The notes: generated by a model not told the origin, from the sequence alone. Shown: positions 7,416-28,023, counted from the stretch's first letter. The stretch is 64,000 nucleotides of DNA from Candidatus Zambryskiibacteriota bacterium (GCA_016932555.1 JAFGCQ010000004.1:990-64989); one strand, 5' to 3'. Numbers and translations are program-made.

Positions 7416-10052
<2,637 letters not shown>

Positions 10053-10065
<13 letters not shown>

Positions 10066-10628
10066 TTTATTAGATAAGTTTTTAACATAACATTCCTAGT
10101 TTCAGAGCCTTTAGTGTAATAAACCCATACTGTGACTTCTATTTCTCTCCCATTGGGTAATTCTTCAATTTGAATTTTTCTATTAAAAGTGGTACTGTTC
10201 CCACCTAAGGATTGACTATAAATAAATTGGGCATTTTGTTGTAAATTTGGGCAATTTCCGGCTGGGCAAAGTACTAAATCCAATGTCCCATTAGAATTTA
10301 CATTAGCTCGGCAAAATTGACCCGTAGAACAATCAGCAGCTCCCGTTATTCCATCCAGCCAATTGCCTCCTCCACCATTTATTATTTTAAGTTGATTTGA
10401 ATCTCTTATGTTCCTCACTATCTCCATACCTTCTTGAGCTAAATAAAAAGCGGTAATTTCATCTTTAGCTATAATATTTTGGGACAAGCTCTGCCTGACT
10501 GCTCCAAAAACTGCAGTGATGGCGAGAGTGACAGCTAATATAGCCACTATGGCTTCAAGCACTGTAAAACCACCCTGCGGATTTATATTGAATATTGAAT
10601 ATTGAATATTGAATATTTTTTTAATCAT
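10053..10628 (-). CDS. Type IV minor pilin (prepilin-type N-terminal cleavage/methylation domain)
   Basis: GGFTVLEAIVAILAV prepilin motif. A 7-bp tandem repeat lies in its leader-peptide coding region. Confidence 0.7.
10585..10616. repeat. Heptanucleotide tandem repeat (ATATTGA/TATTGAA) x about 4.5, inside the 5' coding region of the minor pilin gene
   Basis: The + strand reads atattgaatattgaatattgaatattgaatatt. It encodes IFNIQYSIFNI of the prepilin leader. The unit length is not a multiple of 3. Confidence 0.85.
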
Positions 10629-10632
10629 AATT

Positions 10633-11268
10633 TTATAAATCCAAAGTTCTCCTAGAAGCTACAGTCTGCAATGAAAATTCGGTTTTAGTGGTTGCATCTT
10701 CTCCGACATGGCCTTTTACGACAATGAGTACGTATGGTTGAATATCATCACCAGGATTACTACCATAAACATAAAATTTTAAATCATCAATGATGGCTTC
10801 TTGTGAAGTAATTCTTTCAAAATCTCCTCCATTGTAAGATTTTTCAATAGAATGTTTAATATCATTAAATTTATATTGTACTCTGACATTATTTGTTAAA
10901 TCGGTATCATAAAAAGTCACTGACAGCGTCCCACTTCCATCATTGTTAATATTGCAATCGCCCACATCAGGATCCGGACTGAGAGCACAATCATAATTTT
11001 TGCCAAACTTTATAATCCTGGCCATGTCTTCAACTACAATATTTAAATTGTCCACTACTGTCTTAGATGTCCTAGACTTTCGGTTAGCATCAATGATACT
11101 AATAATAGATCCAGCAGAAATAGCCACTACTAAAAGAAATAAAGTAATAGCTACCGTCATCTCTATCAGAGTAAAGCCCGCCCGCTTCGCAGGAATTTTC
11201 AATTTCCGATTTCCAATTTTCAATTTATTTCTCATAATTTTATTGTACTGAGACTTGACCGCTAGCAT
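10633..11268 (-). CDS. Type IV minor pilin (prepilin-type)
   Basis: KRAGFTLIEMTVAITLFLLVV motif. Confidence 0.7.
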   Translation of the reverse strand: MLAVKSQYNKIMRNKLKIGNRKLKIPAKRAGFTLIEMTVAITLFLLVVAISAGSIISIIDANRKSRTSKTVVDNLNIVVEDMARIIKFGKNYDCALSPDPDVGDCNINNDGSGTLSVTFYDTDLTNNVRVQYKFNDIKHSIEKSYNGGDFERITSQEAIIDDLKFYVYGSNPGDDIQPYVLIVVKGHVGEDATTKTEFSLQTVASRRTLDL

Positions 11269-11860
11269 CTACCGTTATGAGAGAAGTTTTACTCCCACCT
11301 GCAGATTGCAAAGTAATTTTTACTGGTGGAAAATCTTTATCAATTCCTCCAACATTGGTTAAAAGAATTTTTGCTGCAGTATCAGGCCTAAAAAACCGAA
11401 TATCTGCTTGAAACAAAGATCCACCGCCTTCAAAACACCAATTTTTTACAGAACCACAAACGTCCTTAATTGTTATTCCCTTATCAAATTTTGTTGTTTC
11501 GATTTCTTCCCCTGCATCATATTTTTCATTATGATTTTTATCTGCATAAAAAATATATTTATCAGATAAACCTTGTCTCATATAAATCCCATACCCCACA
11601 TTAAAAATATCCCCCGCCACACCTAGTTGGCCTTTTACGCCTAAACTATAAATTTGAGCTTGGCGAATCATTAAAGCTAATTCATAAGCTTCGGTATTTA
11701 CAGCCAACTGTTCATCCCATTGCCTTTGTTGCATCACAAAAACAGTTATAATAATCATCGCTATAGATATAGAGACCAAAAGTTCTATCAGAGTAAAACC
11801 TCCACTTCGCTGAAGCTTCACAGGATAAGCTATTTTTAATTTTAAATTTTTAAAAAACAT
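11240..11860 (-). CDS. Type IV minor pilin (prepilin-type)
   Basis: SGGFTLIELLVSISIAMIIITV motif. Confidence 0.7.
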   Translation of the reverse strand: MFFKNLKLKIAYPVKLQRSGGFTLIELLVSISIAMIIITVFVMQQRQWDEQLAVNTEAYELALMIRQAQIYSLGVKGQLGVAGDIFNVGYGIYMRQGLSDKYIFYADKNHNEKYDAGEEIETTKFDKGITIKDVCGSVKNWCFEGGGSLFQADIRFFRPDTAAKILLTNVGGIDKDFPPVKITLQSAGGSKTSLITVDASGQVSVQ

Positions 11861-12722
11861 TTAAGAGAAATTTAATCTGAAAAATATCCAGATTTAATAA
11901 AAAGCTCAAAATAATTCCCAAAGAAAGGAAAGGGCCGAAGGGAATTTCAGATTTAATTGTAAAATTATTACTGAAAAGGGGCAAGTTTATATGTGATTTA
12001 ATTTTCTTAATTAATAAAACTAAAACTGAAAAAACCGCTCCTATCCAAAAAGCCAAAATTATCGCCGATAATCCCATCGCCGGCCCCAAGAAAAAACCTA
12101 AAACCGCTATGTATTTAACATCACCAAAACCGAACCAACGTCCTTTGGATATGAGAAATATTAACAGAAATGGGAGAGCCAGAATAATGCCCGTTACTAA
12201 ATTAAACAAGATTGCAGGCAAGCTTAGAGCTAAAAGCTTAAAGCTTAGAGCAAAAACAAAAAAGGCGATAAGAAAAGCGTCGGGGATAATAAAATGTTTG
12301 AGATCGTAAATAGAAATAAGTAAAATAATCGAAAATAAAGCCGTAATCAAAAGAAAACTAATTCCCATCTCTAAGCTCCAAGCTCTAAGCTCTAAGCTTA
12401 AAAAACCTGTCTCAAACGCCACTAAGACAACTAGAATACCCATGATTATCTCTATAATTATTGCCGATATTGGTATTTTAGCTTGACAGTATCGACATCT
12501 ACCTTTCAAAAATAAAAAAGAAAAAATGGGAAACAAATCTTTATTTTTAAGTTTAGTATTGCAAGAAAAACAAATTGAACGGCCCTTAAAAAAAGGTAAA
12601 CCCGTATTATACCGATCTGCTATAACACCCACAAAACTTCCTAAAGCAGTTCCAAATAGAAATATGACAACATCCCACAAATATAACATTTTTTTATAAT
12701 CATACCATCTCGGCTCTCTCAA
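11850..12722 (-). CDS. pilD: Prepilin peptidase (A24 family)
   Basis: CRYC zinc-binding motif, GFGDVKY active-site region, multiple TM helices. 290 aa. Confidence 0.85.
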   Translation of the reverse strand: MREPRWYDYKKMLYLWDVVIFLFGTALGSFVGVIADRYNTGLPFFKGRSICFSCNTKLKNKDLFPIFSFLFLKGRCRYCQAKIPISAIIIEIIMGILVVLVAFETGFLSLELRAWSLEMGISFLLITALFSIILLISIYDLKHFIIPDAFLIAFFVFALSFKLLALSLPAILFNLVTGIILALPFLLIFLISKGRWFGFGDVKYIAVLGFFLGPAMGLSAIILAFWIGAVFSVLVLLIKKIKSHINLPLFSNNFTIKSEIPFGPFLSLGIILSFLLNLDIFQIKFLLNVF

Positions 12723-23940: not shown

Positions 23941-24231
23941 TTACTTAATTATTATAAAATGCTTATCTTTTGATATTGGTTTAACTTCCTTGATTTCAAC
24001 TTTATCACCTATTTTCTTAGTATTACCAATATCATGGGTTTTATATTTTTTATTTACTTTGTAATATTTTCTGTATTTTTTATGTTTAACAAATCTTATT
24101 ACTGAAACCGTGCAAGTATCTTTCATTTTGTCTGATACTACAATACCCTTCAAGATTCTCGATCTGATTCCATTTTTCTTCTCTTCTGTTTTTTCTATTT
24201 TTTTATCCATAATTCTTAATTCATTATTCAT
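23941..24231 (-). CDS. rpsQ: 30S ribosomal protein S17
   Basis: S17 OB-fold core with an N-terminal extension. Confidence 0.85.
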   Translation of the reverse strand: MNNELRIMDKKIEKTEEKKNGIRSRILKGIVVSDKMKDTCTVSVIRFVKHKKYRKYYKVNKKYKTHDIGNTKKIGDKVEIKEVKPISKDKHFIIIK

Positions 24232-24406
24232 TATTTATCTTCGTCAAAATTCTAGCAATTTCTTTTTTCAGATTTTTCTGCCTTTTAACATCCTTACTTT
24301 TACTACCAGCTATACCAAATCTTATATCACGCAAGGCTAGCTTTTTTTCATCAAGCTCTTTTTGTAAATCTTGTGTGATATTTTTTTTTGGTTTTTCTTT
24401 TTTCAT
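24224..24406 (-). CDS. rpmC: 50S ribosomal protein L29
   Basis: 60-aa L29-like protein. Confidence 0.8.
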   Translation of the reverse strand: MKKEKPKKNITQDLQKELDEKKLALRDIRFGIAGSKSKDVKRQKNLKKEIARILTKINNE

Positions 24407-26343: not shown

Positions 26344-28023
26344 CTACATCTTATCAGGAACTTTGATAGCAAGGAGATTGAGACCAAATTTTAGAATGTT
26401 ATGAGTAGCTCGAGTGAGAGCGATTTTATAAGGCGAAGATAGGTCTTTTTCGTTTACTATCCTTTCTTTACCGTAAAAACTGTTAAAAGCTCCTGCTAAT
26501 TCGGTGAGATAAGTCACAATGTAATGTGGCGCATACTCCTCACCCGCCCTTTTGACTACTTCTGGAAATCGATAAATATATCTCTCAAGTTCAGTAATCT
26601 CAAAATCTTCCGGCCTTTTAGTTTTGGAATTTAAGAATTTGAATATTGTTTTGAAATTTGGATTTTGAAATTTGGATTTTTCAAGCACGGAGTTGGCTCG
26701 AACCGCTGTGTATTGTAAATACGGCCCTGAATCACCTTCAAAAGAAATGGATTTGTCAAAATCAAAAATAATGTCCCCGCCAATGGCTTGTTTCAGTATT
26801 GAATATTTAATAGCGCCAATTGCCACTATTTCGGAAATTTGCTTCTTTTCTTCTGGAGAAAGCTCTCTGTCCTTTAATTTTTCTTCCACTTTCATCTTTA
26901 TTTGATTAATTAAACTTTCAGCCATAATCACTTCTCCTGTCCTCGAAGACATCTTGCCGCCAGGTAAGCGCAACATACCGTGAGAGAGATGTAGCAGCTT
27001 GCCTTTAAGCTCAGGGAAAACTTCACCAATTGCTACCTCAACAACATCAAAAAAAGAATCTTGTTCATTGGCAGTAATGGTGATTGATTTATCATATATG
27101 TATTTCTCCTTTTTGAGCTTAGCGAGCCCTATTTCTTTAGCTTCGTAAGTGGGAATACCATCTGTATTTACAAAAACTCGAGTATGGGTCTTGGGCTTGA
27201 AATTTTCGCCGCGAAAAATTACCGCTCCATTCGATTTTTCAAATATTTTTTTTACCCCGTCATCTACATTAGCAGATTCTTCGGGGGACATGTTTTTTTC
27301 TACAATTTTTTTGCCCACTTGCCCAGCCTCACTTTCATAAAAATGAAAATCAAATTTACTACCTAACTGCTCATAAATTTTTTCAAAAGAATTCAGAGAG
27401 AACTTTTTACCCTCTTCATATAATTTATTTATTTTCGGATCAGATTTTTCGTAAATTTTTTTATTTATTTCTTTTATTTCCTCTTTATGATTCTCGTAAT
27501 TTATGCCGCCATAAACATAAGCTCCGCTCCAATCCAGCTCTGGTTTTTGAATTTTGCCCCAAATAGTCTTGGCCACATGAAGTCCCATGTCGCCGTGATA
27601 ACTTACTGGTATAGTTTTTGCTCCACTGACCTCTAAAATGCGTGTTATTGATTCACCAATAGCATTGTTCATTAAATGGCCGATATGAAATTCTTTGAAC
27701 GGATTAGGTGCTGTGTGGTCAATTAAAATTTTTCCTTTGCCCGATGTAGCTTTAGCGAATTTAGGTCCTTCTTTATTTATTTCGTTAACAGAGTCAGTAA
27801 AAAATTCTTTAGACAAATAAAAATTTATAAAGCCACCGACCCATTTCACTTTCTCTATTTCCGGAATTTTATGGTAAGAGAGCGGTTTACCGATTTCCTC
27901 AGCTTTATCTCCTGCAAAAAATGAAAAATCGCCATTTTGTAAATCCTTGGGATGCATTAGGATGATCTCTTCCATTTTAAGTTCTTTTTTAATCCAATCC
28001 TTTATCTTTTTTTGAATTTCCAT
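26344..28023 (-). CDS. argS: Arginine--tRNA ligase
   Basis: Class I HIGH motif (FHIGH), anticodon-binding DALR-like C-terminus. 559 aa. Confidence 0.85.

Follow-up and report, generated by a model that had tools for sequence, protein, structure and literature searches.

A perfect heptanucleotide array in the cleaved leader of a Paceibacteria minor prepilin: more probably a stable coding microsatellite than a phase-variation switch

In a 64,000-nucleotide stretch of Candidatus Zambryskiibacteriota DNA (GCA_016932555.1 JAFGCQ010000004.1:990-64989; hereafter called the window), the leader-coding region of a minor prepilin gene (10053-10628; this gene and all other features of the window named below lie on the minus strand) contains a perfect tandem repeat of a seven-base unit. 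We lean toward reading this tract as a self-homogenizing heptanucleotide module that lives at the level of DNA inside a cleaved leader, i.e., as a stable coding microsatellite and not as a working ON/OFF switch. A first-pass annotation of the window had described the repeat as a classic contingency locus, and its account of the repeat anatomy and of the frameshift mechanics held up while the switch function found no support in any comparative test. At the level of sequence comparison the classic contingency-locus reading is therefore not supported, with consensus-assembly data leaving room for rare switching.

The array spans 10585-10617 (33 nt) and reads (AATATTC)x4.7 on the coding strand. 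Tandem Repeats Finder (TRF) reports a period of 7, 4.7 copies and 100% matches with ATATTGA as the plus-strand unit, and direct reading of the sequence agrees; the repeat previously placed at 10585-10616 with 4.5 copies is thus real and perfect but extends one base further, to 10617. Our own scan of the window found no other perfect repeat of period 5-9 with at least three copies, and even a 21-nt version of the pattern had a chance expectation of 0.00 in 100 dinucleotide-preserving shuffles of this sequence. Within the open reading frame (ORF) the array occupies nucleotides 12-44 of the coding sequence (CDS), corresponding to codons 4-15, and is translated as IFNIQYSIFNI. The product begins with MIKKIFNIQYSIFNINPQG-G and continues with FTVLEAIVAIL after the cleavage point, and translation of the ORF thereby bears out the earlier statement that the repeat-encoded peptide sits in the first codons ahead of a GFTVLE processing motif.

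The gene encodes a GspI/PilV-like minor prepilin of 191 amino acids and was taken from our ORF list; it matches P0001 at 100%. The protein is identical to this hypothetical protein (JW740_00220) from a metagenome-assembled genome of Ca. Zambryskibacteria at NCBI, the next-closest homologues share only 51-52% identity, and an exact-protein look-up of the gene on other contigs found no record. Codons 1-20 (MIKKIFNIQYSIFNINPQGG; 10569-10628) form the leader-coding segment, which ends at the prepilin cleavage site between G-1 and F+1. The cleavage region reads PQG-G before and FTVLEAIVAILAVTLAI after the scissile bond, carries the G-1/F+1/E+5 motif and runs into a helix at residues 23-85 in an AlphaFold2 (AF2) model. 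Across 42 homologues, G20, F21, T22, L24 and E25 are invariant, and relatives of the gene keep the MIKK start. The AF2 model (predicted local distance difference test, pLDDT, of 84) has a "lollipop" shape composed of a long N-terminal helix and a beta-sheet, and residues 1-11 of the leader are disordered in it (pLDDT <50). A Foldseek search of PDB with this model gave no match at E<=0.001, and no finer minor-pilin type was assigned; Pfam returned no family at E<=0.01, and the NCBIfam matches to gspI, PilV and ComGE were sub-threshold (16-18 bits vs cut-offs of 44-52). Pfam N_methyl is matched by several homologues of the protein and by both neighboring genes.

The array belongs to a family that runs through Zambryskibacteria and other Paceibacteria, of which 139 related loci were surveyed. 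A census of perfect repeats with at least three copies, covering 80 genome loci together with the window (691 kb), yielded 36 repeats at period 7 and 2, 6, 2 and 1 at periods 5, 6, 8 and 9, respectively, and shuffles of the same sequence contained none at periods of 6 or more. All but one of the 36 period-7 arrays (35/36) lie inside ORFs, with 22 in leaders, 8 in the middle of the prepilin peptidase gene pilD, 5 in full-length ligA and 1 in non-coding sequence, which places 30/36 in pilins or pilD. The same periodicity marks the leaders of pilin-type genes as a class: among 277 distinct genes, 45 leader regions reached a period-7 self-match of at least 86%, compared with 0/277 control windows taken from the mature coding part, and no other period was found in more than 2 leader regions. 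At period 7 the window contains five imperfect arrays, of which two are in leaders of minor pilins, two within pilD and one where rpmC and rpsQ meet; scanning periods 4-14 turned up no array at any of the other periods. Array size is narrowly bounded, since all 77 arrays of at least 21 nt measure 21-34 nt and none exceeds 34 nt or 4.9 units; where such arrays recur in relatives that are only about 50% identical, they usually have the typical size of 32-33 nt, or about 4.6 units.

These arrays behave as nucleotide-level entities: they are specific for period 7, perfect internally and present in either orientation, and they are interrupted only at positions where a stop codon would be created. 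Different repeats, translated in three frames, give the leaders of homologues, e.g., IFNFQFSIFN from (AATTTTC)n, KYEIRNTKYE from (GAAATAC)n, KLKIENWKLKI from (GAAAATT)n, IPYSIFHIPS from (ATTCCAT)n or HTSYFILHTS from (CATACTT)n. Twelve distinct arrays in reverse orientation match an ideal GAAAATT 33-mer except at the codon where an in-frame TGA would otherwise stand, and this would-be stop has been repaired in seven different ways (TGG, TGT, TTA, TAT, TCT, CGG and TTT); three of them depart from the ideal 33-mer at that single base alone. Individual genomes can carry one array in several genes, both as direct and as inverted copies (L086, L126, L071, L097 and L112). In L086 it is found in pilD, in two pilin leaders and in ligA, with a near-perfect copy in reverse orientation in a third leader, while L126, L071 and L080 each share one array between at least two leaders. 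The relative orientation of adjacent copies depends on the genome, being direct in some and inverted in others. Arrays are uniform internally but differ between species, with AATATTC in the window, AATTTTC in many relatives including L005 and AATTTCC in L014, and this combination is a signature of concerted evolution. Two genomes that are 94% identical, L005 and L008, illustrate two modes of change, as the orthologue of the target array differs between them by substitutions only, whereas the array of the next gene has been replaced wholesale ((GAAATAC)3 vs (AATTTTC)4.7). Units also vary inside one genome, and the window alone contains AATATTC, GAAAATT-like, CTTAGAG and TAAGCTT versions; a uniform DNA-uptake sequence, which we had considered as a candidate identity of the repeat, is ruled out by such differences.

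If instead the heptad leader peptide (IFNIQYS repeated) were the object of selection, e.g., for membrane targeting or recognition by PilD, the recurrence of IFNxQxSIFN in many homologue leaders would be readily explained. However, orthologous leaders have unrelated sequences (KYEIRNT, KLKIENW, HTSYFIL or KSKVKSQ) or no array at all (MISKFKKQKG), what is conserved is the nucleotide periodicity including its reverse orientation, and the leader is predicted to be disordered. We consider a function at the level of the peptide very improbable.

In principle, the tract is able to act as a switch. Simulated gain or loss of one or two units gave products of 12-26 amino acids with zero alternative in-frame starts, and a change by three units kept the frame of the gene; the first-pass annotation had been right that a one-unit change shifts the reading frame, and such a change would abolish the minor prepilin product. 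A contingency locus built on this tract would use slipped-strand mispairing of AATATTC units to frameshift the minor pilin and thereby create heritable, reversible subpopulations of piliated and non-piliated cells, useful, e.g., for phage escape or detachment. The PilX-like gene downstream would probably be affected as well through ATGA coupling, and the arrays in several pilus genes would then represent several independent switches. The non-triplet unit, the perfect tract at the very beginning of the CDS and the absence of a rescue start after a change of one or two units all speak for this explanation, as do the concentration of arrays in pilus genes (four of the five in the window and the 30/36 related arrays noted above) and the existence of leader variants that are exactly three units apart. 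A repeat at a comparable place is found in the opa genes of Neisseria, whose CTCTT units sit in the part that codes for the signal peptide and form long tracts that vary strongly both between and within strains. As in opa, the repeat is located in a cleaved N-terminal leader so that the mature surface protein lacks the residues it encodes, but such variability in length was not found in the Paceibacteria array family.

One of the closest precedents is neuO of E. coli K1 (on the CUS-3 prophage), which carries (AAGACTC)n in its 5' coding region with 3-53 units; 65.6% of 64 genomes are OFF, and single cultures hold tracts that are one unit longer and shorter (PMC13001214). Both systems share a heptanucleotide repeat in the 5' CDS, a three-frame N-terminus with a periodicity of seven amino acids and a full product that is made only in frame (PMC13001214). 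They differ in that the tract studied here has 4.7 units and related arrays no more than 4.9, with 0/46 arrays out of frame and 0/19 sites polymorphic. The heptanucleotide tracts of the hmw genes, at 13-38 units, are likewise longer (PMC2651432). At 4.7 units, the target array lies above the screening threshold of three heptanucleotide units that has been accepted for candidate simple sequence repeats (SSRs) in Haemophilus influenzae (PMC2651432), and the related arrays all fall between 21 and 34 nt.

Comparative data weigh against free switching. When distinct leader arrays of at least 17 nt were counted, 43 of 46 were in frame with the ATG, 3 were located upstream of the start and none was out of frame, though about two thirds would be expected to be so if the arrays switched freely. 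Length did not differ between independent assemblies of the same species at any of 19 array sites, the locus of one species (homologue P0006) was identical on 14 contigs from several samples without any array variation, and none of 10 protein clusters with at least 90% identity showed a change in leader length. The first-pass annotation had itself named a copy number conserved across divergent relatives as evidence against a switch, and this is the pattern seen here, with about 4.6 units usually found again in relatives with about 50% identity. An exclusive association with surface or contingency genes fails as well, given the 5 equally perfect arrays in the essential gene ligA, the 8 in the middle of pilD and the rpmC/rpsQ and argS repeats of the window, and many orthologous arrays have decayed by substitution with the gene intact. 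Altogether, we regard a contingency locus as unlikely.

The stable coding module that we favor would persist as follows. The arrays would be kept perfect at the DNA level, with units and also separate copies homogenized by slippage or gene conversion; cleavage of the leader by PilD would leave its sequence nearly free, and arrays would be tolerated and persist there because this peptide is removed; and frameshifting length variants would be rare and purged, so that the arrays would stay short and in frame because of selection against frameshifts. Several points weigh against this reading. Tolerance alone does not explain the preference for leaders (22/36) over non-coding sequence (1/36) or why four of the five arrays of the window fall into a pilus operon of 2.7 kb. 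Concerted evolution implies that over evolutionary time the tract does change, through slippage or conversion, and getting from MIKKIFNSSRG (about 1.6 units) to MIKKIFNFQFSIFNSSRG (about 4.6 units) requires that there were out-of-frame intermediates or that a whole module was copied. The homogenizing mechanism and the reason for a size of roughly 33 nt are both points that we infer, and the reading gives no account of the spread of the module to unrelated genes. Finally, the polymorphism tests used sister arrays in consensus assemblies, which places minority length variants at 10585-10617 beyond their reach.

The target gene is part of a same-strand cluster composed of PilT-like and PilC-like ORFs, two pilins, PilD (peptidase A24), a GspH/ComGD-like minor prepilin, a second minor prepilin, the target, a PilX-like gene and ligA, and this synteny is kept in the 80 genome loci. 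PilD (11850-12722; Pfam A24_N_bact and Peptidase_A24) would remove the array-encoded leader. It is followed by minor prepilin gene 1 (11240-11860; 206 amino acids), which is GspH/ComGD-like based on Pfam N_methyl and sub-threshold NCBIfam matches to ComGD and GspH, and by minor prepilin gene 2 (10633-11235; 200 amino acids), which matches both Pfam N_methyl and TIGR02532 above cut-off. The stop codon of gene 2 lies 4 nt ahead of the target ATG (junction TAA-AATT-ATG, TAAAATTATG). On the other side, the PilX-like fourth pilin-like gene (9508-10056), in which the cleavage site is followed by ITLLMAV, has an ATG that overlaps the target TGA (ATGA) and is probably translationally coupled to it; given this overlap and the tight gene junctions, a frameshift in the target would probably disturb the PilX-like gene too. 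This gene carries a weak A-rich period-7 tract at 10016-10052, a position at which orthologues have perfect arrays.

The leader of minor prepilin gene 2 contains an imperfect heptanucleotide array at 11194-11227 (TRF and window scan; period 7, 4.7 copies, 84% matches) that encodes KLKIGNRKLKI. It is a member of the AATTTTC family in reverse orientation that departs from the ideal 33-mer by three mismatches, among them the repair of the in-frame TGA, and corresponds to the weaker repeat that had been placed at about 11200-11232 in the next pilin gene, which is real but located slightly differently. Directly 3' of it, a GC-rich hairpin (CCTGCGAAGCGGGCGGG; 11177-11193) with a terminator-like match encodes PAKRAG of the gene 2 leader and is followed by CTTTAC. 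Similar xAK(R/Q/L) motifs before the cleavage site are written in rare codons (GCG, AAG) in the window and in L007, L009, L021, L083, L086, L099, L106, L107 and L126, with GCG used for 11/13 alanines (19% in the background), AAG for 12/13 lysines (27%) and the hairpin-forming GCGAAGC present in 11/13 distinct leader sequences, which suggests that this motif is a second nucleotide-level module in these leaders. The two imperfect arrays inside pilD (both from TRF and the window scan) are located at 12220-12251, encoding ALSFKLLALSL, and at 12366-12403, encoding LSLELRAWSLE with a would-be TAG stop changed to TGG. Over 31 nt (12220-12250 and 12369-12399) they are mutually inverted with 87% complementarity, lie 118 nt apart and flank a segment encoding IYDLKHFIIPD; orthologous pilD genes have perfect arrays of other units at the same two sites.

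Alternatively, the heptads could be cis-acting elements embedded in coding DNA. They might be bound by a DNA- or RNA-binding protein, such as an RHH-type repressor reading tandem heptads or a cold-shock or S1-type protein on the mRNA, or might form half of an RNA or DNA duplex that controls translation initiation of the minor-pilin genes. In four consecutive genes the arrays begin about 10 nt past the ATG, their length stays close to 33 nt, a terminator-like GC hairpin follows the neighbor's array in the window, and in L079, L080 and L071, which belong to another clade, start-proximal arrays and their reverse complements fold together (z -2.1 to -3.4). In those genomes a start-proximal array (e.g., GAATTAT, which contains the ATG) is joined by a roughly reverse-complementary one (e.g., CATACTT) 55-70 nt downstream (L079:2350-2475, L080:4490-4615, L080:3180-3290 and L071:4580-4715), and the resulting long, mismatched hairpins could occlude the start codon. 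The 5' region of the target gene, however, gave no structure signal in RNA folding (z = -0.39, with 65/200 shuffles folding equally well), and its sole candidate partner array is 609 nt away and only 76% complementary. A scan for promoters and terminators found nothing tied to the 10585-10617 array; promoter-like matches were at shuffle level (20 vs 16.2 +/- 4.4), and the only terminator-like site that it returned for the operon is the one at 11193-11177 after the neighbor's array, with none downstream of the target array. Partner arrays show the direct and the inverted orientation equally often, so that their complementarity is not preserved, the units differ within a genome (AATATTC vs CTTAGAG and TAAGCTT in pilD) so that one factor cannot bind all of them, and the arrays in the middle of pilD and in ligA are far from starts. 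A cis-acting role therefore seems improbable to us. An invertible segment or long-range pairing with the neighbor's array was also considered and is ruled out as a general explanation by the same distance and complementarity and by the mixed orientation in relatives.

Two described systems are of interest in this context. In the pil1 locus of Streptococcus gallolyticus, GCAGA repeats in a leader peptide act together with a downstream terminator in transcription attenuation (PMC3894217). The likeness lies in a short tandem repeat within a "leader peptide" frame that heads a pilus operon, along with the terminator-like hairpin after the neighbor's array, but the pil1 repeat is located in a separate upstream mini-ORF, whereas the array described here is inside the CDS of the pilin itself and has no terminator-like hairpin behind it. 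Heptanucleotides dominate the long SSRs of many prokaryotes, for which a polymerase footprint has been proposed (Mrazek 2007 as summarized in PMC4679880; see also PMC4692102). The TAACTGA arrays of Beggiatoaceae and cyanobacteria are short and lie by translation starts; in Beggiatoaceae they comprise 2-6 copies and have been proposed as sites for a translational regulator, which favors a cis-acting role (PMC4679880). They resemble the Paceibacteria arrays in their 7-nt unit, short length, occurrence beyond chance, frequent location by starts and occasional in-frame presence at the protein periphery, and one Paceibacteria leader unit, CTATCAG, is a single base away from the reverse TAACTGA unit. 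They differ in being mainly intergenic with one dominant unit per genome, while the Paceibacteria arrays are nearly all coding, have many units, reach no more than 34 nt and are edited against stops.

The sharing of arrays between unrelated genes could alternatively reflect a mobile or copy-paste module of about 33 nt (11 codons) that is frame-neutral and inserts in either direction into tolerant coding sites. The same 32-33 nt module in unrelated genes of L086, the occurrence of both orientations, the wholesale swap of a leader array between L005 and L008, the presence of (AATTTTC)n in 30 IMG/VR contigs with GC contents of 0.21-0.63 and a Y1 (IS200-like) transposase gene that adjoins pilD in one relative are all compatible with it. 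This transposase (218 amino acids, PF01797; L170:1187-1843, minus strand) was seen between a pilin gene and pilD in the species of P0006 alone, and no mobilizing enzyme is linked to the arrays. Furthermore, the arrays have neither target-site duplications nor conserved flanks, their unit sequences are very diverse, and at the first ligA site the array replaces native residues with no change in length relative to LigA of the window. We consider a mobile module quite improbable. A comparable phenomenon is known from Rickettsia, where palindromic elements of 100-150 bp are found in frame inside coding genes including essential ones. Both are repeated DNA in frame at structurally tolerant protein sites, again including essential genes, but the Rickettsia elements are palindromes of another lineage and the arrays described here are tandem heptamers of 21-34 nt.

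The IMG/VR arrays (L140-L169) occur in contigs labeled "viral" and mostly outside long ORFs. Several exceed 5 units and reach up to 77 nt (L154:5297), L166 has several different heptamer arrays, and in five contigs the array directly follows the same ORF end, NAEGSVMFVTPALS and stop. Their composition is unrelated, and they inform only on the generality of heptamer arrays and on the absence of a length cap elsewhere. In relatives, many leaders, such as those of L017, L022, L024, L027, L094, L095, L114, L117 and L120, contain a duplicated pseudo-cleavage motif, KGFT(R/H/P)TPK(S/N/T)(L/F/W)(V/G)(S/C)G followed by FT after the cleavage point, of which the TPK...LVS part would back-translate from the peptide to an inverted repeat (ACACCAA...TTGGTGT) between direct GGTTTTAC repeats; as judged from this back-translation, the pattern resembles an insertion with target duplication. 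P0059 and P0101 belong to the same 90%-identity cluster and have unlike leaders (MKKLQITNYKLQVNYKQG vs MTKKSLNLSIFKSFNSSRG), which suggests rapid wholesale replacement of leaders.

Repeats outside pilus genes deserve a separate description. Orthologues of ligA have perfect arrays at two fixed sites (L009:6867, L009:7026, L023:6739, L027:5447, L003:6872 and L086:5712), one in the HhH region (NFQFSIFNFQ) and one in the linker before the BRCT domain (SKLETRNSKL, SPSQLSALSS), and ligA of the window (7416-9488) contains only a decayed version. At the junction of rpmC (L29; 24224-24406) and rpsQ (S17; 23941-24231), an imperfect period-7 array (24205-24239; ATGAATA/ATGAATT/AAGAATT) covers the 3' end of the former and the annotated start of the latter and gives ribosomal protein S17 an N-terminal extension of 28 residues (beginning MNNELRIM) ahead of the Pfam S17 domain; because the array contains ATGs in different frames, the true start of S17 is uncertain. 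In argS (26344-28023), a perfect 14-nt repeat of 2.3 copies (26649-26680; coding strand TCCAAATTTCAAAA) is located where the DALR anticodon-binding domain of arginyl-tRNA synthetase begins and represents another perfect non-triplet repeat in an essential gene.

Taken across these genes, it is also conceivable, though on balance we doubt it, that the arrays constitute an undescribed, self-homogenizing module of about 33 nt in Paceibacteria of the Candidate Phyla Radiation (CPR) that is used in both orientations in all four minor-pilin leaders, pilD and ligA and serves a separate function. It might provide operon-wide, low-rate frameshift switches of piliation, or it might be a regulatory or recombination signal placed inside coding DNA since hardly any intergenic space exists in these tiny genomes. 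A search of the literature on heptanucleotide repeats or phase variation in CPR/Patescibacteria found nothing relevant. Heptanucleotide SSRs and SSRs in leader-coding regions are known already, but capped, always-in-frame and stop-avoiding arrays that form CPR pilus leaders and invade essential genes appear to be unreported.

Type IV pili are regarded as key to host attachment and DNA uptake in CPR bacteria, so that a real pilus switch would matter. Under the reading of a stable coding module that we favor, the cleaved leaders and some loops of essential enzymes across this class would be three-frame translations of seven-base arrays, which would make them a clear case in nature of repeat dynamics at the nucleotide level prevailing over protein sequence. 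The case also cautions that a non-triplet repeat in a surface gene is not automatically a contingency locus, and it offers a concrete system for asking why prokaryotic repeats favor seven-base units.

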